Shown here in pieces: positions 30,180 through 53,461 of a DNA stretch of 64,000 bases. The notes under the pieces were generated by a model, which worked only from the letters and a program-made list of their open reading frames with translations, had not been told where the DNA came from and did no database searches. The DNA comes from Thermodesulfovibrionales bacterium (GTDB taxonomy: Bacteria; Nitrospirota; Thermodesulfovibrionia; Thermodesulfovibrionales; SM23-35), in the NCBI GenBank assembly GCA_963753165.1, contig CAVWBP010000002.1, positions 80,301 to 144,300 on the forward strand, read 5' to 3'. Position numbers and translations under genes: made by a program. Position 1 is the stretch's first letter. Each line of letters opens with the position of its first letter.

Positions 30180-30180
30180 G

Positions 30181-33533: not shown

Positions 33534-33588
33534 AGGTAAATTTATCAGAAAATGACTATTGTGGAATAAGAGAAAAACAGGGGGCAAA

Positions 33589-34224
33589 ATGAAAAAACGA
33601 TCTTTCTTACTCTTTTTACTTTATATTTCGGTCCTGTCGGTGCTTTTGTATGGATGCGGCAGCGGCGCCGGAGCACCGGGCAGTAAAGGGATCGAAGATA
33701 CCGGCGTTCAGCTGAGTGCGGTCGTGAACGGTTTGTATCTTGGAGGGAACACAAATTCCATTGATGTTTTTCAGGATGTATGCGACGAGGGGCCGCCTCC
33801 TACTTACGAATTATTTACTGACCATCAGGCAGAAGTGACATTCACCGCGTCCCTTATAAACCCAAACCCTACCATAAGGCCAGGAACGCTTTATGTCGAG
33901 AAATATACCATTGAATATAAACGTTCGAATGATTCACTCGGGGCTCCACCGATCGAAAAGGATACCCGTTTTGAGACTATCATCATTTCTCCTCCCCTTT
34001 CAGGGACCGGCAATACAAGTGTTACATGGACCATAGCGCTTGTTGACCTGCCCAGAAAAGAGAAGTATGGAGATGATGTTTTGTCGGGCCGTTATGACTA
34101 TCATCTGGCATATATCAACAACTATACAGCCATCTTTACTTTCTATGGCAAAAATGAATATGGCGAAGATTTTTCCGTCAAGACACAGATGAATTTCCAG
34201 ATCGGGTGGTTTGATAACTGTTAG
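33589..34224 (+). CDS. Hypothetical lipoprotein
   Basis: Lipobox signal MKKRSFLLFLLYISVLSVLLYGC. No family recognised. Confidence 0.6.
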   Translation: MKKRSFLLFLLYISVLSVLLYGCGSGAGAPGSKGIEDTGVQLSAVVNGLYLGGNTNSIDVFQDVCDEGPPPTYELFTDHQAEVTFTASLINPNPTIRPGTLYVEKYTIEYKRSNDSLGAPPIEKDTRFETIIISPPLSGTGNTSVTWTIALVDLPRKEKYGDDVLSGRYDYHLAYINNYTAIFTFYGKNEYGEDFSVKTQMNFQIGWFDNC

Positions 34225-34260
34225 TCAGTAGTGTGAGCAATTACAGTTTTGGAGGATAAG

Positions 34261-36304: not shown

Positions 36305-38408
36305 ATGAGGAAATATTTATATTTAATGATATGCCTGTTTCTTGCCGCCTGCGGCAGCCAGTCTTCCACGAACATCTCTTCAGATACATCAGGGTCCTCG
36401 GGCAGCATTAAGCTCTCTACGCAATCCATTCTTGCGGAGATGGAGAAGGGCGGCCAGTACAAGGACGGGGAACTGCTCGTGAAATTCAAATCCGGCGTCA
36501 AGGCCGCATCGACTGCTGCAGTGCATCAGGCAGCGGGGGCAACGGTCATAAGAAAATATACCGCAATCCAAAACCTTGAACAGGTGAAACTGCCCCAGGG
36601 GCTTTCGGTCAAAGATGCAGTGATGCAGTACATGTCGAGCCCGGGCGTTGAATACGCAGAACCGAACTATATAAGAAAATTAGACACCATAATACCGAAT
36701 GATACCTATTTCGCAAACCAATGGTCTTTCCTGAACACCGGTCAATATGCATATGGAATAGCCGGTGCGGATATCAAAATGGCGGCAGGATGGGATGTTA
36801 CCATCGGCAGCGGCGACATAACGATTGCGGTGCTTGATACGGGAATCGATTACAGCCACAATGACCTTGTCTGGAACATATGGAGGGATCTGGGCGAGAC
36901 GAGTTGCACCGATGCTATCGATAATGACGGAAACGGATACGTGGACGACTGTATAGGCTGGAATTTCGTCGATAATAACAGTGATTCAATGGATGACCAT
37001 GGCCACGGGACACATGTAGCGGGAGTTATCGGGGCCAAAGGGAATAACAGCACAGGCATTGCGGGCGTTATGTGGTTGACAAACATGATGGCGTTGAAGG
37101 TATGCGACGCGAATGGTTCCTGTGATGTCGGGGCTGAAATCGCAGCCATCGATTATGCTATTAACATGAAGGATAACCATGGGGTGAATGTGAGAGCCAT
37201 GAATGCCAGTTTCGGCGGCGGTGATTTTTCGGCTTCGGAATATCAGGCTCTCGCACGGGCAAACACCGCAGGGATTCTTTTCGTAGCTGCTGCAGGAAAT
37301 GGCGGCGGAGATGGAGTCGGCGATAATAACGATGTTGCCCCTCATTATCCCTCGAGTTACGATCTGCCGAATATTATCGCGGTCGCAGCGACTGACCAGG
37401 ATGACAGAAGGGTCTCATTCAGCAATTTCGGCCCAACCTCTGTTGATGTGGCGGCACCGGGTACCTATATTTTCAGTACAGTACCCAACTGGTGGACAAT
37501 GTATTATGGATACGGCCATCTTGAGATGTTCGATGGCACTTCCATGTCTACCCCGCATGTGACCGGTCTTGCCGGCCTTTTGAGCGCATATTATGGTCAT
37601 TTTACCCATGGCCAAATTCGTACGATGATACTGAGATATGTTGATGTGCTGCCCACGCTGAACGGCTGGATTCTCACAGGCGGAAGGATCAACGCGGACA
37701 GAGCCCTGAAGTCACTGTGGGCGACATACGATCTTTCTGCAACCCCGGTTTCCGCGTTACAGATGGATCTGGCATGGACCGACCGGGCTACGGACGAAAT
37801 CGGTTATAGAATTTATAGAGGAACAGACGGGATTTCTTATCTGCAGATAGCCACAGTCGGCGTGAACGGGTCATTTTACTCGGATGCAGGCCTCACTGAC
37901 GGGACGAGATATTATTACAGGGTGAGGGCGTTTAATGATATCGGCGAATCCCCTCTCCAGCAGGGAACTCAGGTATCTCAGGTGACGCCTATTAACCCTC
38001 CGACGAATCTGAGAGTAGTAACAACCTCAAGCGCTCAGATCCAGCTTGCCTGGTCGGACAATTCGTCGACTGAACAGAACTATTTGATCGAGAGACGTAC
38101 ATATAACAGTGATTTTGTACAGATAGACCAAGTGGGCCAGAACGTATCTACCTACACTAATTCCGGACTCAGTCCGGCCACTTCATACTGGTACAGGGTG
38201 AGAGCACATAATCCGGTTGCGGGATATTCTGCATATTCCAATGAAATTTCAGGGACCACTCTCTACTTCAGGCGGGACCACGAAGAAGCATGGCGGAGGC
38301 GGTGGATGTTCTGTCGGAGGGCCGCAGAATACACCGACAGCATTTGCAGACCTCCTGATACTGCTCATGCCTGCAATCGTACTCGCACTCATAAGACGGA
38401 GGAATTAA
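36305..38408 (+). CDS. S8 subtilisin-family serine protease lipoprotein: I9 prodomain, two FN3 domains and a Gly-Cys C-terminal sorting tag. The tag is in frame 0 after a shift near 38258-38262.
   Basis: Lipobox LFLAACG. I9 prodomain: GELLVKFKSG...GVEYAEPNYI. Catalytic triad: VLDTGIDYSHNDL, HGHGTHVAGVIG, GTSMSTPHVTGLAG. FN3 x2: YRIYRG...YYYRVRAFN and YLIERR...YWYRVRAHN. Shifted tail: GGGGGCSVGGPQNTPTAFADLLILLMPAIVLALIRRRN. Confidence 0.9.
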
Positions 38409-38470: not shown

Positions 38471-38546
38471 AGGGTGCCTTCTGATTCAGGGTATATGATG
38501 GGGTTCTCATAATAGTGTTGGACATAGAATTGAGTGCTTTTACTTT

Positions 38547-38610
38547 GTCATGCTGGCTTGTCCAGCATCTTTCTTCGCAGCAAGAAGGATTCCCGACAAG
38601 CGGGAATGAC
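38547..38610. repeat. Family-C palindromic element, copy 3
   Basis: Sequence gtcatgctggcttgtccagcatctttcttcgcagcaagaaggattcccgacaagcgggaatgac. Confidence 0.8.
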
Positions 38611-38677
38611 ACACTGGGTGAAGTCAATACTATTAGCACATCTTGATAATGTCAAAAAAGGTTAACAAGGATAACCA

Positions 38678-39554
38678 TTGAACACAGGACTTCTTACAAA
38701 AAGAACTATTTTTTCCCTGAATGTCTGCCTTAGCATCTTCCTCCTTTTCGCGGTCCTTTTTCTTGTAAGAGATGCGATGACGCTGTATTTCGAACAGGGA
38801 AAGACCATAAGGACGGAATCCACTTCGCCTGCCAATCAAGAAGCGGGAGCGAAAAAGGCGCAATTTACAGAGTACGCCCGTATCCTTGCCAATAACCCCT
38901 TTGGTTTCTCCGGAGGCGAACTGAAGCTTCTGGCCGGTTCTCTCCGCAAGCCTCTCGAATCCCGCGGATATCGCGCTGGTCGGCACAGTAGTGGGGCCGA
39001 AGGAACTGACGTTCGGGGTATTCAGGGACAGGACAGGTATGCAGGAAGTATTCAGGCTCGGCGAATCGGTCTTTGGAGCAGGGAAGCTCTCACGGGTCGA
39101 AAGGGAAAAGGTCCTGCTCAAACAGGGAGGCAGAGAGATCGAAATCCCCCTCGATGATGTCAAAATAAAAGAGATCAGCAAACCAGGCATTGCAGGCAGT
39201 CCACAGCTTTCCGCATTTGCCCAGAAGGTTGGGAGGGGTTTATACATCGTTGATCAGAACAAACTCCAGCAGGCAATTGCCGATCCGGGCCAGATGATGA
39301 CTGACGCACGGCTGAAACCAAACGTTGCAAACGGCAAGGAGGAAGGGTTTGTCCTCAATGAGGTGAAACCCGGGGGGATATACCATAGCCTGGGCCTCCA
39401 GGACGGTGATGTGCTGCTCCGGATAAATGAATATGATATTTCGAATCCTGAAAGGGCGCTGCAGGCATTTAATGCGCTGAAAGGTCTCGACAGGGTGCAG
39501 ATTGACATGATCCGTTCGGGTGCACGGATGACTATGACATATCAGATCAAGTAA
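38678..39554 (+). pseudogene. gspC: Type II secretion system protein GspC (TM segment, HR region, PDZ domain); frameshift near 38925-38945 as assembled
   Basis: TTG start and the TM segment IFSLNVCLSIFLLFAVLFLV. After the shift: DIALVGTVVGPKELTFGVFRDRTGMQEVFRLGESV...KVLLKQGGREIEIPL. PDZ: GFVLNEVKPGGIYHSLGLQDGDVLLRINEYDI. Confidence 0.8.
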
Positions 39555-39829: not shown

Positions 39830-42140
39830 ATGAATAAACAACGGTCATCAGACATTATGAATGTATTCGCTATTCTGATTTTAATTGGATTTTTCGCCTC
39901 CGCTTCTCATCCCTGAATCTCTCTTCGCTGAAGAGACCCCGACCGATACCGCTGTTCAAGAGGATCAGCCTGTCAAAGTACAACAGGGGGATAATCCTCA
40001 GCAGGAACTTAAGCAGACTGGAAAACAAAAAGGCAGGGAGAAAAAAGTCGCCTTTAATTTTGTTGATGTGGACATACCGGTCGTGTGAAGTTTATCAGTG
40101 AAGTAACGGGCAAAAACTTTGTGTTCGATGAGAGAGTAAAAGGCACAATAACCATCATCGCTCCGTCCAGGCTTTCTGTGGACGATGCATTCCGTCTCTT
40201 CACCTCTGTGCTGGAGCTGAAAGGGTTTACCATCATCCCGTCCGGAAAAGTGTATAAGATTCTGCCGACTGCGCAGGCAAAGCAGACAGGGCCCGAACTC
40301 CAGAAAGACGAGGTTGTGCACGGTGAGCGATGCGTATATCACAAGGCTCATACAGCTGAGGGCGATATCATCTGCGAAGGCAATGAATTTCCTCCAGCCC
40401 CTTGTCTCAAGGGACGGACATATCTCTTCGTTCGGCCCCGGAAACATGCTTATGATTGTGGACTCTGCCACAAATATCGAGCAGATACTCGAGATCCTCG
40501 ACTCGATAGACAAACCGGGGGTGGAGGAAGCGGAGATTATCCTGCTGAAGCATGCAAATGCGGATGACGTGGTGAAGATCATCACCGAGACGCTGGTCCT
40601 GAGCAGCAAAGGGCAACCCTCTGCGATACGCGGACTGAGGCCGGGTGCAGGTGCCGGCAGCATCTGTCGAAGAATCCAAATCGTCTGTTTTTGCAGATAC
40701 CCGCCTGAATGCAATCGTCCTGATCGCGGACAAGCAGGGAAAGAGAGGCCATGAAGAGGATCATAGCGCTCCTCGATATCCCGCTTCCCGAGGCAACGAG
40801 CAAGATCAACGTCTATTTCCTTGAATATGCCGATGCGACGGAGCTCTCCGAGGTGCTCGAAACGATGCTTTCAGGGATTTCTGCACAGCAAGGGCAGGGC
40901 AGGCGGGACAGCAGGGCCAGGCCCAGAAGAGCCCCTTTGAGCCGGAGGGAAGATGATTATTTCCCCGGACAAGGCAACCAACTCTCTCGTTATTGTGGCA
41001 TCTCCTGCAGATTACCAGAACCTTGTCCAGGTAATAAGGCAGCTTGACAAGAAGAGAAGGCAGGTGTACGTGGAGGCGATGATCGTTGAAGCCTCAATAG
41101 ACAGATTGCAGGAACTCGGGTCCAAGTGGCGGATTATCGCCGAGAAGGACGGAGAACCGGTAGTGGTCGGAGGGTTCGGCCAGATCGACTCTACCTCAAT
41201 GCAGGGAATTCTTTACGGACTCACCGGAATGACAGCCGGCGGCATGGGAAACTTTCTCGATGTCCCGATTACGACAATTGGTTCGGACGGATCAGTTATC
41301 ACCTCGACACTCACAGTTCCGGGATTTGCCGCACTTTTCAGCCTGAACGAATTCAAGGATGCTGTAAATGTCCTTTCCACACCGCAGATCCTGACTTCAG
41401 ACAACAAGGAAGCGGAAATCATTGTAGGGGAAAATGTCCCGTTCATAGCCCAGAAAGAATCGGACCCCGCACGATCGCAATCAATTTTTACCTCGATTGA
41501 GAGAAAAGACGTCGGAATCACCCTGAGGATCACTCCTCAGATTACCGAAGGGAACCATGTGAAACTCGACATCTATGAGGAGATATCAGCCCTGAAGCAG
41601 GAATCGACAACGGTGGTGCTTACCGTGGGACCGACGACCACAAAACGTTCGACAAAAACGTCTGTTCTTGTCAAAGATAACCAGACTGTTGTAATAGGGG
41701 GGCTCATGGAAGAGAGAGAGGAAGAAACAGTGAATAAAATACCGCTCCTGGGCGACATCCCCCTCCTGGGCTGGTTGTTCAAGAATAAATCTGTGGAAAA
41801 AAAGAAGACAAACCTGCTCATATTTTTAACGCCCCATATTGTGAGAGAACCTGAGCAGCTCGATAAATTGACCGGTGAAAAAAGGCTGCAATTTGCAAGG
41901 ATGGAAGAAAGATATAAAGAGGGCGAATTGCTCGTAAAATTCAGGGGGGAGACTTCAGAAGAGAGAATCATGGAGATACTCTCTCAGGAAGGCGCTGCTA
42001 TCCTGGCCCCGTTACAACCGAAAGGGCTCTGCCGGATACAGCTGAAAAAAGGCCGGGAAGTGAAAGACGCGGTCAGGATTTTCACTGCATATCAGGAAGT
42101 GGAATATGCGGAACCCAATTATATTATGAAAATACAGTGA
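39830..42140 (+). pseudogene. gspD: Type II secretion secretin GspD with a C-terminal I9-prodomain-like extension; five or more frameshifts between 39.9 and 41.0 kb as assembled
   Basis: Signal peptide MNKQRSSDIMNVFAILILIGFFASA. N0/N1 pieces lie in different frames: VAFNFVDVDIPVV | KFISEVTGKNFVFDERVKGTITII | AKAMNFLQPLVSRDGHISSFGPGNMLMIVDS | SVFADTRLNAIVLIAD | INVYFLEYADATELSEVLE. Intact secretin core: VYVEAMIVEASIDRLQELG...LSTPQILTSDNKEAEIIVGENVPF...IPLLGDIPLLGWLFKNK...NLLIFLTPHIV. Confidence 0.88.
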
Positions 42141-42184: not shown

Positions 42185-43705
42185 ATGGAAACGATCGATG
42201 TCATAAAGGATGAGGATGTAGAAATCTCCCTTCTCCAGAATATTCCTCTCAGCTTCGTGAAGAACAACCAGATATTCCCTTTCAGCCGGAATGGCGAGGA
42301 ACTTTCAGGCGCTGTTGCTGACGACAGGGGGTTGCTGGCGCTTTCGGAAGTCGCAAAAACATTGGGCTTAAAGCCCAGACCTTTCAAGGCAAACTCAGGG
42401 ATCATCCTCGATGCAATCAACAGGTTCTACGGGCAAATGGGTTCGGCAGAGGAGGTTATGGATACCATAACCGGCGAGGACCTCTCCTCTGTCGCGACCG
42501 AATTCGAAGCCCCGAAAGATCTGCTCGAACTGACCGAGGAGGCTCCCATAATCCGTCTCCTCAACGCTCTCCTTCTCCAGGCGGTAAAAGAGAGGGCAAG
42601 TGATATCCACATCGAGCCGTATGAGAAAGAACTCGATGTGAGATTGAGAATAGACGGGATACTGCACAGGGTTTTGACCCCGCCAAAAATTATTCAGGAC
42701 GCGTTAATCAGCAGAATAAAGATCATGTCGAACCTCGACATCGCTGAAAAGCGGCTCCCGCAGGACGGAAGGATACGGCTTCTTCTCGGCGGAAGGGACA
42801 TCGATATCAGGGTGTCGGTCATCCCTACTTCTCACGGTGAGAGAGCGGTCCTGCGGCTCCTTGACAGAAAACAGGGCCTGCTGGGTCTCTGGGAGGTCGG
42901 GTTTAACAGGGATGACGAAAAGAATATGGAGGACCATCTGAGAAGACCGGATGGGATCATCCTGGTTACCGGACCCACGGGGAGTGGAAAAACGACGACC
43001 CTGTATGCTGCGCTCAACAGGATTCATACGGAAGAAAAGAATATTATCACGGTTGAGGACCCCATCGAATATCAGCTGAAAGGCATCGGACAGGTACAGG
43101 TGAACCCTAAAATACGGCTTACCTTTGCCTCAGGGCTCAGGTCTATTCTGAGACAGGACCCCGACGTGATTATGATCGGCGAAATAAGAGACCTGGAGAC
43201 GGCTGAAATAGCCATGCAGGCATCGCTTACAGGACATCTCGTTCTCAGCACCCTTCATACAAACGACGCACCGAGTGCGTTGGTGAGGCTTATAGACATG
43301 GGGATCGAGCCCTTCCTCGTCGCTTCGTCATTGGCCCTTGTGCTGGCGCAAAGGCTGGTACGGACGATCTGTCCCCAGTGCAAGATATCCTATACCCCGA
43401 CTGAGATCGAGCAATCATATTTTGCAGAACCTCCCAGGGTCCTCTACAGGGGACAGGGATGTGACAAATGCAAGGGGAAGGGATATCTCGGGAGACTGGG
43501 CATTTTCGAACTGCTTGAGATCAGCAATGAAATACGGCCCATGATCACCGAACGGATGGATTCTCAGAGAATAAAGAACCAGGCGGTTTCGCAGGGCATG
43601 AAGACCCTCCGGCAGGACGGACTTGAGAAGGTGATTCAGGGGATAACAACCCTTGAAGAGGTTCTGCGGGTAACACAGAAGGATTATGCCGATATTTCAA
43701 TATAA
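42185..43705 (+). CDS. gspE: Type II secretion ATPase GspE
   Basis: Walker A VTGPTGSGKTTTLYAAL. Asp/His boxes: ITVEDPIEYQL, RQDPDVIMIGEIRD, TGHLVLSTLHTND. Tetracysteine motif: CPQC...CDKC. Confidence 0.95.
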   Translation: METIDVIKDEDVEISLLQNIPLSFVKNNQIFPFSRNGEELSGAVADDRGLLALSEVAKTLGLKPRPFKANSGIILDAINRFYGQMGSAEEVMDTITGEDLSSVATEFEAPKDLLELTEEAPIIRLLNALLLQAVKERASDIHIEPYEKELDVRLRIDGILHRVLTPPKIIQDALISRIKIMSNLDIAEKRLPQDGRIRLLLGGRDIDIRVSVIPTSHGERAVLRLLDRKQGLLGLWEVGFNRDDEKNMEDHLRRPDGIILVTGPTGSGKTTTLYAALNRIHTEEKNIITVEDPIEYQLKGIGQVQVNPKIRLTFASGLRSILRQDPDVIMIGEIRDLETAEIAMQASLTGHLVLSTLHTNDAPSALVRLIDMGIEPFLVASSLALVLAQRLVRTICPQCKISYTPTEIEQSYFAEPPRVLYRGQGCDKCKGKGYLGRLGIFELLEISNEIRPMITERMDSQRIKNQAVSQGMKTLRQDGLEKVIQGITTLEEVLRVTQKDYADISI

Positions 43706-44866
43706 GGGATACAGGCCTGACGGTTCGGAGGTCGCCGGGCACTATCGAGGCAGCAAGCCAGAAGGAGGCAGCGCTCAGGCTTAAAGAGTCCGGACTCTAT
43801 CCAAGGAACGTAGCAGGGGCTTCAGAGAAAAGACGGTTCTCTCTGTTCAACCGGCACGATGCAACTCTCCTCCCCTCTGTGACGCGTCAGCTGTCAACAC
43901 TTATCTCCTCCGGTGTCCCGCTCCTTGAGGCCCTCAGGTCGCTTTCCGACGAACAGAAAGGTTTCTGGAAAACCATGCTGGTGGACATAAAAGAACGGAT
44001 TGCTGGCGGGATCGAGTCTCTCAAAGGCGCTTGGAAGAGTATCCGAAAATATTTCCCTGAATTCTATGTCAATATGGTTGCCGCCGGAGAGGCGAGCGGA
44101 AATCTCGACAATATTCTCACCCGCATTGCTGATTTTCTGGAGGCCCAGGACAACCTGAAATCCAAAGTCAGGACATCGATGGTCTACCCTGTTTTCATGA
44201 TCTGCATCAGTTTTATCGTGCTCTCTTTTCTCTTCGCCTTTGTGATGCCGAAAATTACCAGAATATACAAAGACACGCAGAGTGCACTCCCCTTGCTTAC
44301 CGTGGTCCTTATCTGGGTGAGTGAGATTTTTCAGCGTTACTGGTGGCTCCTTATAGGATTGCTTCTCGGCGGGTTATATTCCCTCAGGGAATTGAGGGAG
44401 AAGAAACGCGTATTCCTCGACAGGATGATATTGCGCATTCCCGGGAACATCCTCCAGAGTCTCTATTTCGGGCGTTTCGCCCGGACATTGGGGTTCCTTC
44501 TTGAGGGGGGGCTCCCTATGCTGAGTTCTCTTGAACTTTCTGCAAAGTCCATCGGGAATAAAGTGATCGAACATGAGCGTTCTGGAATCCGGGAAACGGG
44601 TGTCGGAGGGTGCACGGCTTTCTGCATCGCTCGATGGCTTTCCCCCGGTGCTCCTCCAGTTGATTTCGACAGGGGAGAGGAGCGGACAACTGGTAGAGGT
44701 TCTGAAAAATGCCGCACGTTCCTACGAGGAGGAGTTCTCCCGCAGGGTGGACAAAGCCCTTTCACTTCTTGAACCGGTGATGATTCTCTGCATGGGCTTT
44801 CTGGTGGGACTCATCGTCCTCGCAGTCCTTCTGCCGATATTCCAGTTGAACCAGTTGATAAAATGA
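43686..44866 (+). pseudogene. gspF: Type II secretion inner-membrane platform protein GspF; frameshifts near 43738 and 44570, plus a possible compensating pair around 44020-44055
   Basis: Starts MPIFQYKGYRPDGSEVAG | TIEAASQKEAALRLKESGLYP. Contains TRQLSTLISSGVPLLEAL and VNMVAAGEASGNLDNIL. After the shift: GFPPVLLQLISTGERSGQLVEVL...LLEPVMILCMGFLVGLIVLAVLLPIFQL. Confidence 0.88.
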
Positions 44867-44874
44867 GCATACGA

Positions 44875-44991
44875 ATAACTGTCCGGTATAGTACTTTCGC
44901 TCATTCTCGTCCCGAAAGCATTCGGGAGGACTCCGAGGTATTCCGATAAGAATCGGGATAAAGCCGCTCAAGTACTATACCGGACAGTTAT
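44875..44991. repeat. Structured intergenic element with perfect 21-bp terminal inverted repeats, between gspF and gspG
   Basis: ATAACTGTCCGGTATAGTACT (44875-44895) pairs with AGTACTATACCGGACAGTTAT (44971-44991). The interior carries the cccgaaagcattcggg hairpin shared with family-C copies. Confidence 0.85.
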
Positions 44992-45016
44992 CAGAGAACA
45001 ATATAACGGAGGAATA

Positions 45017-45448
45017 ATGAAGAACAATAAAGGATTTACCCTGCTCGAAATCATTGTGGTGGTCTTCATCCTCAGTCTCCTTGTGGCGATTGTGGCGCCG
45101 AAGATCATAGGGCGGACCGATGACGCGCGGATTGCAGAGGCAAAGGTTCAGATAAGGAATTTTGAGACTGCCCTGAAACTCTTCAAGCTCGACAACGGAT
45201 TTTATCCGGCTACGGAACAGGGGCTTGAATCACTCATCGAGAAGCCCACTGTCGGGCAGATACCCCAGAAATACCGTGAAGGCGGCTATCTTGAACAGAG
45301 AAAAATCCCGCTCGACCCCTGGAACAATCCCTATATTTATATCTCACCCGGTATCTACGGAGACTTTGATATCTTGAGCTACGGAGCAGATGGGAAAGAG
45401 GGCGGTGAAGGGAAAGATGCGGAGATCAAGAACTGGGACATGCAATAG
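45017..45448 (+). CDS. gspG: Type II secretion major pseudopilin GspG
   Basis: Prepilin signal MKNNKG|FTLLEIIVVVFILSLL. Also contains AKVQIRNFETALKLFKLDNGFYP, DPWNNPYIY and SYGADGKEGGEG. Confidence 0.95.
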   Translation: MKNNKGFTLLEIIVVVFILSLLVAIVAPKIIGRTDDARIAEAKVQIRNFETALKLFKLDNGFYPATEQGLESLIEKPTVGQIPQKYREGGYLEQRKIPLDPWNNPYIYISPGIYGDFDILSYGADGKEGGEGKDAEIKNWDMQ

Positions 45449-45886
45449 CACCGGATTTTCTCTTATTGAGCTGATCGTCGTACTCTTCGTCCTGTCTCTG
45501 GTCCTTGCGATTGTATTGCCGACCTTCACCGGTTTCGGAGAGAGCAGGCTTAAGGCCGAAGCACGGGAGATGGCCTCAATCCTGAGATACGTGAATGACA
45601 ATGCGGTATCGAGAAAAGAGACGTTCTTTCTGAAATTCGATCTCGGGAAAAATATGGTTGCCTGGAGTGAACCCGGAGGGAAAAAACCCGGTCTTTTGAT
45701 GATCTCACCGGCGTCGAAATACAATCGAGAGGTCTTGTGTCGAGTGGGGAACTGACTCTTTTCTTTGAACCTCTCGGCGCCCGTGAAAATCTCGTTGTGT
45801 ACATGAAGCGGGGAGACAGCCACATGACAGTTACACTAAACCACCTGAGCGGCAGGGTGAAAATCGAGACAAAGGATGAAGGATGA
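45417..45886 (+). pseudogene. gspH: Type II secretion minor pseudopilin GspH; frameshift near 45690-45700 as assembled
   Basis: Prepilin motif TG|FSLIELIVVLFVLSLVLAIV. After the shift: DDLTGVEIQSRGLVSSGELTLFFEPLGARENLVVYMK...VTLNHLSGRVKIE, stop at 45884-45886. Confidence 0.7.
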
Positions 45887-46031
45887 GGGATGAAGGAGAA
45901 ATAAAGAAGAAAAAAACATGAGGAAATACTTGTAAAAGAAAATATCAGAGGAATCTCTGAACAAGGATACGCTCAATGTCATTCCCGCGTGGCGGGAATT
46001 TTTCATCCTTCATCCCTCATCCTTCATCCTT
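45872..46031. repeat. Element bounded by perfect 26-bp inverted repeats made of GGATGAR heptads, spanning the gspH-gspI junction
   Basis: AAGGATGAAGGATGAGGGATGAAGGA (45872-45897) and its exact reverse complement (46006-46031). The 108-nt interior contains a family-C half-site hairpin ATTCCCGC-gtg-GCGGGAAT (45981-45999). Confidence 0.9.
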
Positions 46032-46361
46032 CGGAAGAGGGGCTTTACGCTTCTCGAGGTCCTGATCGCGCTGGCTATACTCAGCAGCCTGCTCGTCACC
46101 CTCATCTATACCGTGAATTACCAACTGGGACTCATCGAGAGGCAGGAGACTATCACGGTCGCAACCCTGCTCGCCAAGAGCAAGATGTCGGATCTCGAAA
46201 AAGATCCTGCCGGCAGCAAGGGAGAGTTCGATGCCCCCCATGAGCATTACTCATACGAGACTTTTGTGAAGGCCTCGCCGTATATCGGGGTTTCAGAAAT
46301 TATCGTTGTGGTAAAAGCGGGCAGTGAAGAGGTGAAACTGAATGAGTTTATTGTTCAATAA
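45989..46361 (+). pseudogene. gspI: Type II secretion minor pseudopilin GspI; GTG start and a frameshift in a G4 run near 46040 as assembled
   Basis: The frame after the shift reads G|FTLLEVLIALAILSSLLVTL...ERQETITVATLLAKSKMSDLE. The only in-range start (GTG 45989) is in the neighbouring frame. Confidence 0.7.
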
Positions 46362-47004
46362 GACTTATCCTTTATCCCCTTTTGCAGGGAAGGATAAGGC
46401 CGGGTTTCCTCCCTCCCGGCGAAAAGCCGGCTTTACGCTTCTGGAGGTGCTTATCGCAGTGTCGATCCTCTCCATCATTCTTGCCGCACTCTACAGCACA
46501 TTTTTCATGAGCCACAGGGCAATGGAAGGAATGGATGAATCTTTGACAAAACTTCAGGAGGCAAGAAGGGCCATCGATATCCTCAGGTGTGAACTTGAAT
46601 CGGCCTATCAGAATGAACAGGACGCAGATACTTTGTTCAGAATAGAGGACAGGGATGTCTACGGCAAGCAGACTACGCAGCTCGATTTCACCGCGTTCTC
46701 CGCAGTACGCCCCGGGCTTTCGAAGATTTCTTATTATGTTGAAGAGAAAGAGGGAAAACTGAGTCTCTTCAAAAAGGTGGAATCGCCGTACGGCAGGGAA
46801 GAATCAGAGGGCGTTGATATTATAGAAGATCTTGAAGGTTTTGCCGTCGAAGCAAAATATAATGATACCTGGGTAAGGACCTGGGATGCAGCAATAAATA
46901 AAGCAAAACCCGGGGAACTGAGGATCGGCATGACCATGAACATTAAAGGGCACACGATTACGCTCAATGATATCGCAAAACCGAGGATAGGAAATCAGGT
47001 ATAG
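46342..47004 (+). CDS. gspJ: Type II secretion minor pseudopilin GspJ, with an unusually long leader if ATG 46342 is used
   Basis: Contains RRKAG|FTLLEVLIAVSILSIILAAL, LQEARRAIDILRCELESAY and a beta-rich C-terminal half. Confidence 0.75.
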   Translation: MSLLFNKTYPLSPFAGKDKAGFPPSRRKAGFTLLEVLIAVSILSIILAALYSTFFMSHRAMEGMDESLTKLQEARRAIDILRCELESAYQNEQDADTLFRIEDRDVYGKQTTQLDFTAFSAVRPGLSKISYYVEEKEGKLSLFKKVESPYGREESEGVDIIEDLEGFAVEAKYNDTWVRTWDAAINKAKPGELRIGMTMNIKGHTITLNDIAKPRIGNQV

Positions 47005-47083
47005 ATTCCATATCATGAAAGAACAGAAGCCACTGTTTGAAAATTTAGTTGCTAAAAATTAACGGGTCAGGTTTCTCTAATAT

Positions 47084-47147
47084 GTCATTCCCGCTTGTCG
47101 GGAATCTTTTTGAGGAACCGGAAAGATTGCGGACAAGCCGCAATGAC
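47084..47147. repeat. Family-C palindromic element, copy 5 (near-consensus)
   Basis: Sequence gtcattcccgcttgtcgggaatctttttgaggaaccggaaagattgcggacaagccgcaatgac. Confidence 0.85.
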
Positions 47148-47158
47148 AAAAATTTCAT

Positions 47159-48089
47159 ATGAAATTGAAACAACCATATTTATTAGCAAGGAACCAGCAC
47201 GGCATGGCCTTGGTCATAACGCTGCTTGTCCTTGTGCTCTTGACCGCAATGGTAGTGGAATTTTCCTATGGCGTCTATACGGGCACGAATAATCTCTATA
47301 ACTGGAGGGATGCACAGCGCCTCTCCCTTATGGCAAAGTCAGGCGTCAGTGTGACTGCCAGGATTCTTAAAGGGTTGCGAATCAACAGAGTCAGTAAACA
47401 ACGCAAAATTTCATATTGAGATGCCTGTTGAAAATCCTTTCGAGGACTTTCAAGGGAATATAAACGTCAGGATCGAGGATGAAACGCCAAATTCAATCTA
47501 AACGCTCTTGTCTGTCCAGCGGGTGATCGGGATGTGAATATGGGAGCATACAATGCACTGAAGAGGCTTATTAGTGTGCTTGCACTTGATGAGAGGATAG
47601 CCAGACAGAATCGTCGACTGGATCGATGAAAACAGTGAGGTGAGAATTTCGGGGGGAGAAGCCGGCGCAAAGAATACTTTTCTTGATAGTACTGACGAAC
47701 TTCTCTTAATACGTGGGATTACCAAACAAGATTATGATACGTTAGTTCCTTATATTACGGTGTGCGGGTCAAAGGGGATGCTCTATGTTAATATTAATAG
47801 AGCAGACATCCCCGTTATGAGGAGCTTGTCAGATTGGATGAAAGAGCAGGATGCAGAGGAAATAGTCAATCGCCGCAACTCAATACCTTTTACAGGTGAA
47901 CATGGGGCAATTCTTGGAGAGATTCAAGGTATTGTGGGCGGATTTGGGACTGAAACAGGAGTCTTTTTGACTTCAGAAGGACAACACTTTTCTATAATTT
48001 CTACTGCATCATCAGGTGGTGTGAAGAGAATTATTGAAATGGTATTGAATACTGCGAAAAACACAATGGAGTACTGGAAGGAATATTAA
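47159..48089 (+). pseudogene. gspK: Type II secretion minor pseudopilin GspK; three or more frameshifts between 47.39 and 47.64 kb as assembled
   Basis: Starts GMALVITLLVLVLLTAMVVEF...WRDAQRLSLMAKSGV. Further pieces: IEDETAKFNLNAL, IVDWIDENSEV, and GGEAGAKNTFLDSTDELLLIRGITKQDYDTLVPYITV. Confidence 0.75.
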
Positions 48090-49153
48090 TGGCGACAGTG
48101 CTCTTTATCGATGTCAGGGAATCTGAAGTCGAAACCTATCTCTTCGATTCCGGAAGGGGTGGTCATACACTTAAGGAGAGGAAGACATATCCCCTGTCCG
48201 GCAACCTGGATTTTTCCCTCGATCCCGTTCCGGTGACTGTTGAGAATACCTATGTAAGCCTTCCTCTGAGCAGCCTCAATTTCAGGGTCGTAGACCTCCC
48301 GTTTGTGCAGAAAGACAAGGTCAGGGATGTCCTTCCCTTCGAACTTGACAGTATCATCCTCGGAGGATCTGAGAAGGTAGTCTTTGACGGCGTTCCGCTC
48401 AATAATTCCGGGGACGCAAGCCAGGTGCTTGCAGTGTATGCCGGGAAACAGACTATCGGGGACCTCCTCAGAAAACTGAAAACATGCAATGCAGACCCTG
48501 CCTGCGTAACATCGCTTGAGTTGAGCAAAGTGGTCCGGGAATTTTCATCGGAAAAACTTCTCGCTCCTGTGCGGTTGGAGGCGCAGGAAAGGGTATCTCT
48601 TGCGATTGAAGAGATGAAAATTCCTACCGTCAACCTCCGCAGGGACGAGTTCGCGTACACCCGCGAAACCGATAAGACAAAGAGGTCACTCAGATGGACT
48701 GCGCTCCTCGCGGTATTCGTCGCGCTTATTTTTGCGGCAGGTATACTGCTGAACATTCTCTCTGTCCGCTCGGAAATTGCAGCAGTAAAGAATGATATGA
48801 GGAAAAAATATCAGGAAGCTTTCCCCGGAGAAAAAAATATCATCAACGAACTCCATCAGATGAAGTCCCATATGAAAGAACTGAAAACCGATGAGGGACT
48901 CTACCTGGGAATCAGCCCTCTTGCAACCATCCTCAGGATATCGGATACTGACAGACAGGGCGTCGTGTTCCATGAGATAACCATCGACAGGGAGAACATG
49001 ATTCTGAAGGGCGAAGCGCCGACTCTGAGCGACGTGCAGAAGATGAAGGACAGGCTGGATGTTCTCTTTGACGGGGTCACCATATCAGACTCTAAGTCAT
49101 CTGCACAGGGCAGGATGCTGTTCACTATAACGGCAAAGGAGAGGAAATCCTGA
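48089..49153 (+). CDS. gspL: Type II secretion protein GspL-like (cytoplasmic actin-like domain, TM segment, periplasmic domain)
   Basis: Contains SLPLSSLNFRVVDLPFVQKDKVRDVLPFELDSIIL and the central TM segment WTALLAVFVALIFAAGILLNIL. Lies between gspK and gspM with coupled start and stop codons. Confidence 0.6.
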   Translation: MATVLFIDVRESEVETYLFDSGRGGHTLKERKTYPLSGNLDFSLDPVPVTVENTYVSLPLSSLNFRVVDLPFVQKDKVRDVLPFELDSIILGGSEKVVFDGVPLNNSGDASQVLAVYAGKQTIGDLLRKLKTCNADPACVTSLELSKVVREFSSEKLLAPVRLEAQERVSLAIEEMKIPTVNLRRDEFAYTRETDKTKRSLRWTALLAVFVALIFAAGILLNILSVRSEIAAVKNDMRKKYQEAFPGEKNIINELHQMKSHMKELKTDEGLYLGISPLATILRISDTDRQGVVFHEITIDRENMILKGEAPTLSDVQKMKDRLDVLFDGVTISDSKSSAQGRMLFTITAKERKS

Positions 49154-49656
49154 TGACGTTTCTTAAAGACAAAAGGGTCGTCGCTTTTTTTGCCGGTCTG
49201 ATCATTGTTATTTTTCTCTTCTTCTCCGGAATGCATCAGCTCTCATCATCAAAAAAAGAACTTGCCGCGCTCAAAGGACAACGGAATGAACTGTTCCTGC
49301 TGAAAGATGAATACCTCTCGCTGAAACAGAGAATAGATTCCGTGGAAGGCAGGAAGAGCCAGTCAGGCCCTCAGGGCATTGTCCAGGCAGTCGATGAAGT
49401 CTTCCAGTCTATGGGCTTGAAAGACAAAATAAAGACGCTGAAATCCACAGGGAAGAGAGAGATCAGGGACGGATTTGAAGAGAATGCCGATCTTTCCATA
49501 GAGAAAGTGACCATGAACGAGATGGTGAATATCCTCTACAGAATCGAGAATGCACCCATGGTCCTTACCATGAAAAAGGTTACCATAAAAAAGTCTTTTG
49601 AGAATCCCGAACTCATGAATATCTCCCTTGACCTCTCGTTCTTAAAGACAAAGTGA
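49153..49656 (+). CDS. gspM: Type II secretion protein GspM-like
   Basis: 167 aa with one N-terminal TM segment (VVAFFAGLIIVIFLFF), a coiled coil and a small C-terminal domain. Translationally coupled (ATGA) to gspL. Confidence 0.5.
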   Translation: MTFLKDKRVVAFFAGLIIVIFLFFSGMHQLSSSKKELAALKGQRNELFLLKDEYLSLKQRIDSVEGRKSQSGPQGIVQAVDEVFQSMGLKDKIKTLKSTGKREIRDGFEENADLSIEKVTMNEMVNILYRIENAPMVLTMKKVTIKKSFENPELMNISLDLSFLKTK

Positions 49657-50432
49657 AGCTTTTCCTCATCCTCATATGCGCGCTGGTCCTGATTGTCTTC
49701 GGACCATGGTTTGTTTTCTCTCCAAACACTCTGCAGGCCATTATCGAAGATTCCCTTTCAGCACACAGGATCGACACTGAATTGCATGGGCTGAAGAAAG
49801 GGTTGTTGTATACTATACATATTGATAGAGCTGTCCTGAGGCGGAACAGCCATGAACTGATCTCTTTGCATAATCTCTCTCTTCGTATTCACCCGGTCAG
49901 TCTCTTCATTTCCAGTCTGCGCGGGGCGATCGATGGAGAGGTATACGGAGGCACTATTTCCGGCAGCATGAAATTTACGAAGGACACGCAGCAGATGAAT
50001 TTTTCTCTGAAAGAAGTCAGCATCAGTGAGATAGTGTTTCTGAAAAGAATCGGACTGGCAGGGAAAGGCACCCTGTCCGGCACAGCAGCAATTACCGATG
50101 CAGCAGGTCATGTTGAGTTTGCTGCGAGGGACGCCCAATTTGAACCTGCCACCTATTCGGGAAGAAGGGTGCCCCTGAATATGTTTCGAGTTATTACGGG
50201 AGCGCTGGATATACAAGGTGATACGATACACATGCTGTCAGTTTCATTTGAGGGAGAAGAAGTGTTTGCGAGACTCAAGGGCAAGATTCAGAACGCGGTG
50301 ATGGATCTTGCCATGGAAATCATGCCGGGCAGGTCATTTGCGGAAAACCCCTTTCTGCTCGCGGAACTTGAGCAATACAAAGTTTCTCCCGGATATTTTG
50401 TAATACCGGTGAAGGGCAACCTTCCCCTATAA
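49653..50432 (+). CDS. gspN: Type II secretion protein GspN-like
   Basis: 259 aa with an N-terminal TM segment (LILICALVLIVFGPWFVF) and a beta-rich periplasmic body. Last gene of the gsp block, with a 4-nt overlap. Confidence 0.45.
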   Translation: MKLFLILICALVLIVFGPWFVFSPNTLQAIIEDSLSAHRIDTELHGLKKGLLYTIHIDRAVLRRNSHELISLHNLSLRIHPVSLFISSLRGAIDGEVYGGTISGSMKFTKDTQQMNFSLKEVSISEIVFLKRIGLAGKGTLSGTAAITDAAGHVEFAARDAQFEPATYSGRRVPLNMFRVITGALDIQGDTIHMLSVSFEGEEVFARLKGKIQNAVMDLAMEIMPGRSFAENPFLLAELEQYKVSPGYFVIPVKGNLPL

Positions 50433-50442: not shown

Positions 50443-52749
50443 GTGAGATATTTCATTTACCTGGTTCTTGTGCTGGCGCTTGCAGGGTGCGGCGCAGAAG
50501 GACAACCCCGGATCACTCAAAACACAACGAATTCTGACTCTGTCGCCGTACACACACAGGAAGGTCCCCCCGCCGGGATGGTGTTACCGTTGCCCCGGTA
50601 TCTCCCCGGAGAAATTCTCGTGAAATTCAAGGCCGGAACTCCGAGCCACACAATAAATACGCTTAATCACGCAATGGGTGCGGCAACTGTCCGGGAACTG
50701 AAGCATATCGGAGTGCAACGGATTCTATTGTCTGATGCCATGGATCTTCAAGAGACGCTTGCCTCCTATCGATCGAATGCCGATGTTGAATATGCAGAAC
50801 CAAACTATATTGTGAGAAAGGCGGTCATCCCGAATGACCCCGGATTCCCTCAGGAATGGGGGCTCTCCAATACCGGGCAGACCGGAGGGAGCATTGATGC
50901 AGATATCGATGCTCCGGAAGCGTGGGACATCACCACCGGTTCACACGATATTCTCATCGCCGTGATCGATACAGGAGTGGCATATGGCCATCCGGACCTT
51001 GCAGCAAATGTCTGGCAGAATACGAAAGAAATTCCGGCGAATGGCATAGATGACGACGGGAACGGATACGTCGATGACGTCTATGGATGGGATTTTATCG
51101 ATAATGACGGGTATCCGGAAGACCTGGACTCGCACGGGACTCATGTCGCGGGTATTATCGCATCACAGGGCAATAATGGGGCTGGCGGATCCGGTGTTAT
51201 GTGGTCAGCCGGAATCATGGCGCTCCGTTTTTTAGGGGTGAGCGGGTCAGGTGATGTGGGGAATGCAGCCAGGGCAATCATCTATGCTGCCGACAATGGA
51301 GCGCGGATTATCAATGCAAGCTGGGGTGGTTTTGATTACTCAACTACTCTCTATAATGCTATCAGCTATGCACGATCCAAAGGGGTGCTCTTTGTTGCCG
51401 CTGCCGGGAATGAGGCGCAGAACAGTGATTTCGCTCCATTCTATCCTTCAGCATTTACCCTCGACAATATCATATCGGTTGCTGCTTCCGACAGCATGGA
51501 TAACCTCGCGTATTTTTCGAACTATGGAGCAACCTCTGTTGATCTGGCTGCCCCCGGAGTGGGGATCTATAGCACGGTCCCCGTTATTTCGGCGGGTGCT
51601 CCGGTTACTGTTTACAGTGAGAACTTTGACAGTGCGTCAGGTCTGCTTCCGCTGCTCGGATGGGCTCAGGGGGGAGTGAACGCAACATGGGCGGTAACCC
51701 CGGGCACCGGGGTGAATGGAACGAACAGCCTTGAAGACAGTCCGGGAGGAACCTATCTGCCAAACACAAATTCCTGGGCGGGCTATCTGACCCTTCTGCC
51801 AGCCGTGAAAAACAACCGTTATATTTTGTCCTGTGTCTGGAAAGGATATATTGATTCGTTTAGCCTCGATTATTTCCAGTTCAATTATTCTCCGGACGGC
51901 AAATCCTGGGAAACAGTTGCCTGGACAGACGGAAATACAGGAGGCAATTTTGTCCCGGTTTCTACCGACCTAATTACGGAAGCAGGTGATCTCTACGACA
52001 GGTTCTCTGTCGGTTTCGGTCTCCAATCAGACGGGGTCCTCCAGCAGGAAGGTGTCTATATTGATGATGTTACTGTGCAGAGGCAACCGCTGAGTATAGG
52101 CAGTTATTCATATGCATCGCAGGCCTGGAACGGCACCTCTCTTGCTGCTCCGTATGTGAGTGGCGCAGCAGGACTGGTATTATCTGCGAATCCTTCGTTC
52201 GTATACTCGGATGTCAAAAACATTCTCCTGAACAGCGTGGATAAGAAGCCTTTCCTCCTCGGGACTTCGGTTTCAGGGGGAAGGCTGAATGCCTTCGCAG
52301 CGTTAAAAGGGATGGCCCCGGCTGCGCCGTCAAATCTTGCAGCAACTGCGGTTTCATCAAGCCGCATCGATCTTTCCTGGACTGAAGTCTCCTCTGAAAC
52401 CGGCTTCAGCATAGAGAGAAAGACGGGAGAGAGCGGGATATTTGGAGAAATCGCACAGACAGGAATGAACAGTATGAGTTACGGTGACACCGGCTTGAGT
52501 CCGTCTACGACTTACTTTTATCGCGTGCGCGCGTATAACGCATCCGGCTATTCAGTATATTCGAATGAGGCACAGGCAACAACAGACAAATCTTCCTCCG
52601 GCAATGGAGGTGGAGGCGGCGGCGGGTGTGCCATCGGGGGCACCGCTTCCTCTCAGACAGCGATAGCAGATACCCTTGTGCTGGTTCTTCCTCTCATCAT
52701 TGTGTATCTTTTGAGAAGGAAAGGATCGAATACGCTGTTTCGCAATTAG
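50443..52749 (+). CDS. S8 subtilisin-family serine protease lipoprotein: I9 prodomain, a ~190-aa insert between the His and Ser regions, one FN3 domain and a Gly-Cys C-terminal sorting tag (GTG start)
   Basis: Lipobox LALAGCG. I9 prodomain: GEILVKFKAG...DVEYAEPNYI. Catalytic triad: VIDTGVAYGHPDL, HGTHVAGIIAS, NGTSLAAPYVSGAAG. FN3: FSIERK...YFYRVRAYN. Tail: GNGGGGGGGCAIGGTASSQTAIADTLVLVLPLIIVYLLRRKGSNTLFRN. Confidence 0.92.
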   Translation: MRYFIYLVLVLALAGCGAEGQPRITQNTTNSDSVAVHTQEGPPAGMVLPLPRYLPGEILVKFKAGTPSHTINTLNHAMGAATVRELKHIGVQRILLSDAMDLQETLASYRSNADVEYAEPNYIVRKAVIPNDPGFPQEWGLSNTGQTGGSIDADIDAPEAWDITTGSHDILIAVIDTGVAYGHPDLAANVWQNTKEIPANGIDDDGNGYVDDVYGWDFIDNDGYPEDLDSHGTHVAGIIASQGNNGAGGSGVMWSAGIMALRFLGVSGSGDVGNAARAIIYAADNGARIINASWGGFDYSTTLYNAISYARSKGVLFVAAAGNEAQNSDFAPFYPSAFTLDNIISVAASDSMDNLAYFSNYGATSVDLAAPGVGIYSTVPVISAGAPVTVYSENFDSASGLLPLLGWAQGGVNATWAVTPGTGVNGTNSLEDSPGGTYLPNTNSWAGYLTLLPAVKNNRYILSCVWKGYIDSFSLDYFQFNYSPDGKSWETVAWTDGNTGGNFVPVSTDLITEAGDLYDRFSVGFGLQSDGVLQQEGVYIDDVTVQRQPLSIGSYSYASQAWNGTSLAAPYVSGAAGLVLSANPSFVYSDVKNILLNSVDKKPFLLGTSVSGGRLNAFAALKGMAPAAPSNLAATAVSSSRIDLSWTEVSSETGFSIERKTGESGIFGEIAQTGMNSMSYGDTGLSPSTTYFYRVRAYNASGYSVYSNEAQATTDKSSSGNGGGGGGGCAIGGTASSQTAIADTLVLVLPLIIVYLLRRKGSNTLFRN

Positions 52750-52778
52750 TGAAAGATGCAAAAGTAATGTCCTATTTT

Positions 52779-52848: not shown

Positions 52849-52921
52849 AGATTACGAGTAAATTGCATAGGGCATTAATTATGCAGGAATCAATCATGTG
52901 CCTGGGGAGCGGCAATTCTGT

Positions 52922-53461
52922 TTAACCGGGAATTGACTGTTGTATCAGATTCGCAAGCCAGTGAAATATAATCCCGGGCAGTATATTGTTCGTCTTCAGG
53001 TAAAGCCATCCCATAATCAGTGAGGGGAAAAAACTGAGGAGTACAATCCAGTCGCCCCCGAATATCGTCTTCGGGAGATGGGCAAGCGCAAACAGGAGGC
53101 TTGCGAGGACGATAGATTTATAATTCTTCCCCAGCGAATCCTGAATGAACCCTCTGAAGAAAAATTCTTCAGGGAACGCAACGCTGATAAACTGAAACGC
53201 TATGAAATAAGGGGTAAGGTCTGTCATCTGTGCTCTGAAGGCAATCCCGTAAGGCACAAGAATCAGCAGTGTTATGGCAATCCCGAGCACGATATCCTTC
53301 GGAGAAGAACTGATCTTTACCCTGTAGCCTGTGATTATCGGATAGAGCAGCAGGAAGACCGGCAGCATCAGGTGGATATACGTTTTTGCAGGACTCAGTG
53401 CATGGAGGAGAAACGAGAGGACCAGAACGATACAATACCCTGATATGGTTTTTTTATTCAT
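52922..53461 (-). CDS. CPBP-family intramembrane glutamic endopeptidase (type II CAAX protease/Abi fold)
   Basis: 179 aa, polytopic. Motif 1 FPEEFFFRGF (EExxxR), motif 2 LLFALAHL (FxxxH), motif 3 IFHWLANL (HxxxN). Confidence 0.85.
   Translation of the reverse strand: MNKKTISGYCIVLVLSFLLHALSPAKTYIHLMLPVFLLLYPIITGYRVKISSSPKDIVLGIAITLLILVPYGIAFRAQMTDLTPYFIAFQFISVAFPEEFFFRGFIQDSLGKNYKSIVLASLLFALAHLPKTIFGGDWIVLLSFFPSLIMGWLYLKTNNILPGIIFHWLANLIQQSIPG

Follow-up and report, generated by a model that had tools for sequence, protein, structure and literature searches.

A subtilase-prodomain-like domain at the C-terminus of a type II secretion system secretin in Thermodesulfovibrionales

Why should the outer-membrane pore of a type II secretion system (T2SS) end in a relative of the prodomain carried by the proteases encoded on either side of it? 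The question is raised by the secretin gene gspD in a 64,000-nt stretch of a Thermodesulfovibrionales genome assembly (contig CAVWBP010000002.1, positions 80,301 to 144,300; "the window" denotes this whole stretch), in which a T2SS operon lies between two genes for S8 proteases (subtilases), here called protease 1 (upstream) and protease 2 (downstream). An initial annotation, made from the sequence alone, had described the end of GspD as homologous to the prodomains of both subtilases and had suggested that such a secretin-tethered copy could dock, chaperone or inhibit the proteases. The homology and the junction are considered first, and then what the domain may do.

A prodomain homologue at the end of GspD

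The features of the secretin gene that matter here are as follows.

39885..42140, + strand: gspD, T2SS secretin, in five reading-frame pieces, traced with intact homologues by tblastn (matches in three frames) and by alignment to a related locus, L004:8102-10441
41355..41846, + strand: C-terminal core of the Secretin (beta-barrel) domain (Pfam PF00263, amino acids (aa) 135-298, E = 1.4e-52)
41844..41921, + strand: linker of 26 residues, REPEQLDKLTGEKRLQFARMEERYKE, aligned to the first S-domain helix of E. coli GspD (5wq7_A)
41922..42119, + strand: subtilase-prodomain-like domain, PF22148, of I9-type fold (Pfam, AlphaFold2, Foldseek), with E-P-N at 42111-42119
42120..42137, + strand: C-terminal six-residue strand YIMKIQ, placed by hhalign against the BPN' prosegment; the stop codon is at 42138-42140

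The final piece of gspD is an uninterrupted open reading frame (ORF; 40953..42140, + strand, 395 aa) that ends NLLIFLTPHIVREPEQLDKLTGEKRLQFARMEERYKE-GELLVKFRGETSEERIMEILSQEGAAILAPLQPKGLCRIQLKKGREVKDAVRIFTAYQEVEYAEPNYIMKIQ-stop, and the span 41922-42137 encodes the last 72 residues of GspD, referred to below as the tail. That the protein is a GspD is indicated by its Secretin region, which aligns to ten solved GspD chains (including 5wq7, 5wq8 and 6hcg) at E-values of 1e-31 to 1e-36, and by a Secretin_N domain within the same ORF; full-length orthologues have N0 and Secretin_N, and the N-terminal part of GspD was recovered from the window in other frames by tblastn. The NCBIfam GspD model TIGR02517 reaches 328.6 bits against a cut-off of 351.35, a score obtained on the 395-aa C-terminal piece alone owing to the frameshifts. 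This model stops at aa 307 of the ORF, so that the PF22148 domain lies beyond canonical GspD.

PF22148 (Fervidolysin_NPro-like, the fervidolysin N-terminal prodomain) matches aa 316-389 of the ORF with 44.2 bits (Pfam, E = 2.5e-11; gathering cut-off 21 bits), and the 72-residue tail by itself scores 40.9 bits. The same family is found in protease 1 (aa 46-121, 65 bits) and protease 2 (aa 52-121, 55.7 bits). Over the full aligned stretch the tail is 33% identical to the prodomain of protease 1 and 30% identical to that of protease 2, close to the one third of positions initially estimated by eye, and BLASTP aligns it to the two proteases at 38% identity across 84 residues (E = 1e-14) and 36% across 74 residues (E = 1e-13), respectively. 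Pfam, BLASTP and the predicted fold described below thus bear out the homology to both flanking prodomains, with two corrections to what had been expected. The blocks GELLVKF, VKDAV and VEYAEPNYI, reported as identical throughout, are all present in protease 1, but protease 2 reads GEILVKF and lacks VKDAV, keeping VEYAEPNYI. Further, the anticipated hit to Inhibitor_I9 (PF05922) did not appear, Pfam listing no match to it at E <= 1 in the tail or in the two proteases; the family matched instead is the related PF22148. The tail is a homologue of prodomains and not itself a prodomain, being the C-terminus of a secretin with a stop codon after it.

An AlphaFold2 model of the tail, built from 42 secretin tails aligned with the two protease prodomains, has a mean pLDDT of 83.4 with a core above 90, and adopts the order strand-helix-strand-strand-helix-strand (beta-alpha-beta-beta-alpha-beta; strands 14-23, 42-47, 52-56 and 76-83, helices 29-38 and 63-71). 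Its top Foldseek matches in the PDB are unprocessed pro-subtilisin E (3whi) and the PC1/3 prodomain with furin (9fid), followed by the 77-residue subtilisin BPN' prosegment (1spb_P, 3cnq_P) and fervidolysin (1r6v, 25% identity over 73 columns); the list also holds Tk-SP ProN (3afg) and PCSK9 prodomains. These prodomain matches have probabilities of about 1.00, yet E-values of only about 1e-2, as expected of a fold that is small and ferredoxin-like; the same list also includes RRM and NikR domains. The subtilase-prodomain fold is therefore the one predicted, as the initial annotation had anticipated. A single-sequence search of the tail against the PDB returned nothing, and a search with the tail profile gave no significant match, only a marginal one to the propeptide of a subtilisin-like protease (9rk9_A, E = 0.2).

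A conserved junction and an old fusion

It had been noted initially that the 5' part of gspD suffers from assembly problems, and this proves correct. Compared with the locus L004, from a Thermodesulfovibrionales metagenome-assembled genome (MAG; Ess09-11) that aligns collinearly with the window (86-94% nucleotide identity), the window gspD carries six frame-breaking indels of 1-2 nt upstream of the tail, at about 40084, 40320, 40648, 40737, 40888 and 40954 (net -3). The frames broken relative to intact L004 extend to other genes of the island: besides gspD (40084-40954) they include gspF (43879-44863, two ORFs), gspK (47159-48089, split) and the 3' end of protease 1 (about 38270). Upstream, pilQ (31307-33533) falls into two ORFs, one with the AMIN part and one with the secretin part. 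The window thus contains either scattered assembly indel errors or a decaying copy of this T2SS.

With so many broken frames, among them those of gspF, gspK and the 3' end of protease 1, the tail itself might be suspected of being an assembly artefact, a misjoined or collapsed piece of a third protease gene. This explanation is effectively refuted by the orthologues. Among the best 120 homologues (58-80% identical; JGI, ENA, NCBI and Logan assemblies), PF22148 is annotated after Secretin in 119, the exception being P0033; in P0033, and also in P0031, the tail is broken by a frameshift. A scan of one genome per GTDB species, with a 147-residue query comprising the barrel end, linker and tail, found 33 loci (L004-L036) that match the entire query, mostly from Thermodesulfovibrionales or other Nitrospirota, with four from Syntrophales and one from a Desulfobacteraceae MAG. 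The same junction hence recurs in 118 of the 120 nearest independent homologues and across 33 species genomes, and a C-terminal extension shared by secretin homologues, as initially called for, is well established. In L004 gspD is intact and has the same end as in the window (NYIMKIQ-stop), none of the six indels falls within the tail, and the DNA of the tail has diverged from that of both protease prodomains even at synonymous sites within the shared motifs. Orthologue conservation, the intact L004 gene and this divergence rule out the misjoin that the initial annotation had named as one way in which its claim could fail, and the architecture of the fusion is independent of the broken frames of this window. 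A collapsed or recently duplicated protease fragment is likewise excluded by orthologue conservation together with the divergence at synonymous sites.

The fused family is real but small and lineage-restricted, as indicated by an exhaustive profile search of 1.84 billion cluster representatives in which only 21 proteins matched over both barrel end and tail at E <= 1e-30. Some Nitrospirota secretins (L051, L081) are without a tail. In a neighbour-joining tree (81 columns, low resolution), one clade unites 113 Nitrospirota tails, the window tail and three tails from Syntrophales/Desulfobacterota, and another holds 99 N-terminal prodomains of S8 proteases together with those of the two proteases in the window. 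Mean identities agree with this division, at 51% from tail to tail, 52% from S8 prodomain to S8 prodomain, and 33% from tail to S8 prodomain (Nitrospirota). The separate clades and these identities show that the fusion is old and that the neighbouring protease genes were not its source. The tail should not be read as a derivative of those genes; it belongs to an old clade apart from the S8 N-terminal prodomains.

Tails are nowhere followed by an S8 domain, and relatives of them occur in several other arrangements. Two S8 proteases, P0145 (aa 751-829 of 831) and P0187 (aa 631-707 of 710), have a second PF22148 domain at their extreme C-terminus, after a conserved "CFIATAAYG..." segment, which is closer to secretin tails than to S8 N-terminal prodomains. 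Two standalone proteins of 207 aa each (P0142, P0164) combine an N-terminus resembling a signal or lipoprotein sequence with a tandem pair of PF22148 copies, (Y/F)xEPN(Y/F) being kept in each copy; they are candidate free prodomain-like inhibitors. In other secretins (P0128, P0132, P0112, and the Syntrophales loci L028 and L033) a long linker rich in Pro, Thr and Lys leads from the prodomain-like domain to a SPOR domain, and the secretin P0121 has two prodomain-like copies ahead of a SPOR-like end. The copies of P0142 and P0164, the C-terminal copies of P0145 and P0187, and the second copy of P0121 all group with secretin tails in the neighbour-joining tree. In Syntrophales variants E-P-N is replaced by E-P-[VI]-N.

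Two further observations concern the ends of individual genes. The fused secretins P0017, P0021, P0024, P0027 and P0029 have, beyond the prodomain-like domain, an extension of about 40-60 residues ending in a conserved (M/L)FGGPF..(F/M).(S/N)GL(D/I)RR. At L003, a long-read metagenome contig, a partial second copy of the last 23 codons of the tail (65% identical) lies just 3' of the gspD stop codon (11920-11988), representing either a local duplication or an assembly artefact.

What the tail may bind

Aligning the tail profile to pro-subtilisin BPN' with hhalign (the 77-residue length of the BPN' prosegment being confirmed by the title of 1spb) places tail N82 on prosegment D71, and E-P-N on E69-E70-D71. 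Because six further residues follow in each chain, the window secretin stops at the counterpart of Y77, which is P1 of the autoprocessing site, and YIMKIQ is equivalent in position to P6-P1. The residues E69 and D71 were reportedly identified as helix caps by Gallagher et al. in 1995, and we take the E and N of the tail motif to be their counterparts. When bound to subtilisin, the prodomain caps two surface helices of the enzyme at their N-termini and places its C-terminal strand in the substrate-binding cleft (PMC4865297). E-P-N is conserved at 98-100% in tails and in 99 S8 prodomains alike, and further blocks are conserved in both (Y..GE.LVKFK, GA, L, V.eA, P.V.YA). Among the 118 homologues with a recognisable motif, the strand has the consensus Y-[KIT]-[IVM]-K-I-Q (Y in 103/118, K/R in 95/118, I/M/L in 103/118, Q in 68/118). 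In none of them does the chain stop short of the P1-equivalent position; it stops precisely there in 22 and at most 3 residues later in 70, and the rest have extensions of 10 to 155 residues. The strand lies outside the confident core of the AlphaFold2 model, the last eight residues having a mean pLDDT of 69. Judged by its sequence, then, the tail retains the features by which real prodomains contact their protease.

These retained features make protease binding in the manner of a cleaved prodomain the reading that we think most likely, with a probability of roughly 40%: the tail would bind an S8 protease, and the secretin would present a periplasmic ring that binds or inhibits cargo proteases. 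As secretins are 15-mers whose C-termini face the periplasm on the outer side of the barrel, beneath the outer membrane, the pore would bear a ring of about 15 prodomain mimics. Each could engage the catalytic domain of an S8 lipoprotein protease as a product-like competitive inhibitor or holding site, by means of the beta-sheet core, E-P-N, and a substrate-like strand of six residues ending at the P1 equivalent or a few residues past it. A protease rid of its own lipid-anchored prodomain would in this way be kept inactive and concentrated at the secretin until export, and the ring would serve as a periplasmic safety catch or docking ring, useful where the lipid-anchored prodomain of the cargo stays behind. 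That the ring specifically captures its own subtilase cargo in the periplasm through the active-site cleft is a narrower proposal, which we put forward tentatively. Any inhibitor, chaperone or docking activity is something that we infer from the features just listed.

The alignment of the strand with the pro-subtilisin autoprocessing site would also suit a cleavable decoy or regulatory substrate, in which S8 cleavage after the E-P-N strand trims extensions (a linker or SPOR) or switches the state of the secretin. Many homologues do run on past the strand, by 1-150 freely varying residues, but in 22 of the 118 and in the window nothing is left there to cleave. The idea moreover overlaps with the preferred one, since the cleaved product would remain bound, and we regard it as unlikely. 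Much more improbable is that the conserved C-terminal peptide is a ligand of the GspC PDZ domain, the prodomain-like fold acting as a scaffold that couples the inner and outer membranes. The GspC of this operon does have a PDZ domain, and PDZ domains bind C-terminal beta-strand peptides, but the actual C-terminus varies (Q, K, QK, QNAK or long extensions) in a way unlike that of a PDZ ligand. In established T2SS structures, moreover, GspC touches the secretin at its basal N0 domain, a long way from the C-terminus.

The distal S-domain is the pilotin-binding part of GspD in classical systems, and the C-terminus of GspD is periplasmic, outside the barrel, in established secretin structures. The 26-residue linker of the window aligns with residues 572-598 of E. 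coli GspD (5wq7_A), which form the first S-domain helix, and its pattern K..EFA..E..Y is strongly conserved in fused secretins (K 100%, F 93%, E 88%). Because of this alignment, it appears that only the distal S-domain has been replaced by the PF22148 domain and that the first S-domain helix is retained. The initial placement of the tail at the position of the S-domain was accordingly right as to the territory and wrong in implying that the S-domain was replaced as a whole. SPOR is a periplasmic peptidoglycan-binding domain, and the SPOR-bearing variants support a periplasmic location of the secretin C-terminus. With that terminus outside the barrel, the docking of proteases during their passage through the pore, as first suggested, is doubtful.

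The same position speaks for the main rival. The prodomain-like fold may have been co-opted to stand in structurally for the S-domain, as a ring or spacer at the periphery that binds no protease and that stabilises the multimer, helps to direct it to the outer membrane without a pilotin, or connects the pore with the cell wall. The tail is found where the distal S-domain would be, behind the retained first helix, and the SPOR domains or second copies appended in P0121, P0128, P0132, P0112, L028 and L033 suggest envelope anchoring. Ferredoxin-like folds are generic building blocks, as the RRM and NikR domains among the Foldseek hits illustrate. A surrogate leaves unexplained, however, the conserved E-P-N and the unstructured six-residue strand, which are the protease-contact parts of real prodomains, and gives no account of chains that never end ahead of the P1-equivalent position, or of the restriction of S8-linked T2SS operons to fused ones. 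We consider it a serious possibility, though one we would not bet on.

That restriction emerges from a comparison of gene neighbourhoods, in which 36 fused secretin loci include 7 with S8 genes no more than 10 kb away (L003-L007, L009, L019), as against 0 of 47 unfused ones (one-sided hypergeometric p of about 0.002 by our own arithmetic, the seven loci belonging to a single clade and so lacking independence). Every T2SS operon seen with an S8 gene beside it is therefore a fused one, which speaks for protease binding. The expected co-occurrence of the extension with adjacent S8 proteases holds only in part: it is seen in these seven close relatives of the window, and the other 29 loci have no S8 gene within their flanks. 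We also compared the tail strand with the cleavage strand of the neighbouring protease at the seven loci, where the resemblance is suggestive (e.g. YIRQIK against YIRRIA at L007); co-variation of this kind was set aside as evidence, seven loci being too few and phylogeny a confounder.

Several points weigh against protease binding. The 29 of 36 fused loci without an S8 gene within the available flanks (e.g. L001, L002) are the majority of fused operons, a distribution that favours the S-domain surrogate; flanking S8 genes are limited to the window's own clade, so that the seven positive loci are not phylogenetically independent; and related S8 proteases of other Nitrospirota are located away from T2SS operons. 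Some variants do not stop at the strand but go on into long linkers, another prodomain-like copy or SPOR, so a free C-terminus is not required, and the alteration of E-P-N to E-P-[VI]-N in Syntrophales again suits the surrogate. A protease bound outside the barrel would be off the secretion path. Finally, the motifs could be conserved for the sake of the fold or of contacts with the secretin, and not for those with a protease.

Flanking proteases, known systems and significance

The candidate partners of the tail and the rest of the island are encoded as follows.

36305..38408, + strand: S8 protease 1, with lipobox, PF22148 prodomain (36440-36667), S8 domain, two FN3 domains and a Cys-containing C-terminal tag
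38991..39554, + strand: gspC, C-terminal part with PDZ domain (Pfam T2SSC, PDZ)
42185..50432, + strand: remainder of the T2SS operon, with gspE, gspF (split), gspG, the minor pseudopilins H-K (gspK split), gspL, a gspM-like gene and gspN (Pfam, NCBIfam, synteny with L001-L004)
50443..52749, + strand: S8 protease 2, with lipobox, PF22148 prodomain (50596-50805), S8 domain with an insert, FN3 domain and the tag GGGGGGGCAIGG...LVLVLPLIIVYLLRRKG
52922..53461, - strand: CPBP/Rce1-like intramembrane protease, putatively of the myxosortase family (Pfam PF02517, E = 8e-22, 77.7 bits against a cut-off of 22.4)

Both proteases have a lipoprotein signal (LAAC/LAGC) and an intact Asp/His/Ser triad, and a protein identical to protease 2 is present in the JGI data (P0271). 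In protease 1 a frameshift near 38270 masks the true 3' end, the listed ORF reaching 38512; the alternative frame reads GGGGGCSVGG...LLILLMPAIVLALIRRRN-stop, in agreement with the L004 orthologue. With this correction both proteases end in tags (38270-38408 and 52600-52749) made up of GGGGGC[SA][VI]GG, a hydrophobic helix and RRR/RRK. Against the curated NCBIfam models no tag passes, the scores being 16.3 bits for JDVT-CTERM (cut-off 27) and 10.6 for MYXO-CTERM (cut-off 20). The CPBP gene lies directly downstream of protease 2, and its best NCBIfam models (MrtS 80 bits, MrtP 74, Mrt_core 70.8 against a cut-off of 100) all score under their cut-offs.

Cys-containing C-terminal tags have been proposed to be processed by CPBP myxosortases; in Myxococcus and Vibrio, tagged proteins depend on a T2SS for their arrival at the surface, and a divergent T2SS is found together with the Synerg-CTERM system (10.1101/2023.06.07.544157). 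The CPBP protease of the window is likely to be the enzyme that processes the C-terminal tags of the two proteases. Given that these proteases flank the operon, carry Cys-containing tags and have a CPBP gene beside them, and given the reported need for a T2SS, it is very plausible that both are cargo of this T2SS. Like MYXO-CTERM/MrtX, JDVT-CTERM/MrtJ and Synerg-CTERM/MrtS, the flanking proteases combine a Gly-rich Cys motif, a hydrophobic helix and an Arg cluster, and as in myxosortase systems the CPBP gene is adjacent, with the T2SS operon between the proteases; unlike them, the scores fall below the family cut-offs. This looks like an undescribed subtype of T2SS-linked C-terminal sorting in Thermodesulfovibrionales.

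Two features of the surroundings are recorded here for completeness. An intergenic repeat of about 70-110 nt with two hairpins (CATGCTGG..CCAGCATC and ATTCCCG..CGGGAAT) lies at 38546-38611, with weaker copies at 53513-53573, 47083-47150, 52773-52849 and 45977-45999 of the window and at 7883-7991 and 13239-13304 of L004; it recurs between T2SS-island genes of both, in either orientation, and has a REP-like (repetitive extragenic palindromic) or MITE-like (miniature inverted-repeat transposable element) look. In the span 28576-35415, directly upstream of the T2SS island, lies a type IV pilus operon, pilMNOPQ, whose PilQ has an AMIN domain; it is followed by a 221-aa protein and then by a Big_1/invasin-like protein, in the same order as in L003.

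Each half of the fusion has precedents. The S-domain of GspD with its pilotin (e.g. PulD-PulS, GspD-AspS) occupies the same extreme C-terminal position of a T2SS secretin, in the periplasm outside the barrel, but here the distal part that binds the pilotin has given way to a folded domain, some 70 residues long, of an unrelated family; no pilotin was identified, no search aimed at one having been made. With the N-terminal prodomains of subtilases (1r6v, 1spb; MEROPS I9-type) the tail shares its fold, the blocks GE.LVKF and V.YAEPNY and the strand register; unlike them it has no protease attached to it, and the role of intramolecular chaperone within its own polypeptide is closed to it. Free-standing propeptide-like subtilase inhibitors are known among MEROPS I9 members such as Pleurotus POIA1 and yeast PBI2, prodomain homologues that act in trans on a subtilase in the mode proposed for the tail. 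These are soluble, whereas the secretin module is covalently tethered to the secretion pore and its inhibition is putative. The AMIN domains of PilQ and SPOR domains are likewise extra periplasmic modules at a secretin terminus, but they bind peptidoglycan, an activity not known for the I9-type fold. For the combination we found no precedent: the literature searched, on secretins or GspD with fervidolysin, propeptide, subtilisin, Nitrospirae or Thermodesulfovibrio, yielded no description of such a fusion, in keeping with the initial annotation, which knew of no such secretin. Databases already annotate PF22148 on fused secretins, the source names being only GspD or "hypothetical".

How the T2SS recognises and handles folded cargo is poorly understood; secretins are usually seen as passive gated pores, and their C-terminus as serving pilotin-assisted targeting only. 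A secretin domain homologous to the inhibitor and chaperone of the cargo itself provides a concrete, testable link between pore and cargo. It also extends subtilase-prodomain-like modules to tethered versions, on secretins and as second copies at the C-terminus of S8 proteases, as well as to tandem standalone proteins. Even if its role is purely structural, the tail would represent, in Thermodesulfovibrionia and some of the Syntrophales, an S-domain type that is lineage-specific and independent of a pilotin. If it does capture cargo, it would be the first secretin-borne, cargo-specific receptor or inhibitor, and would tie cargo handling by the T2SS to the control of zymogens.

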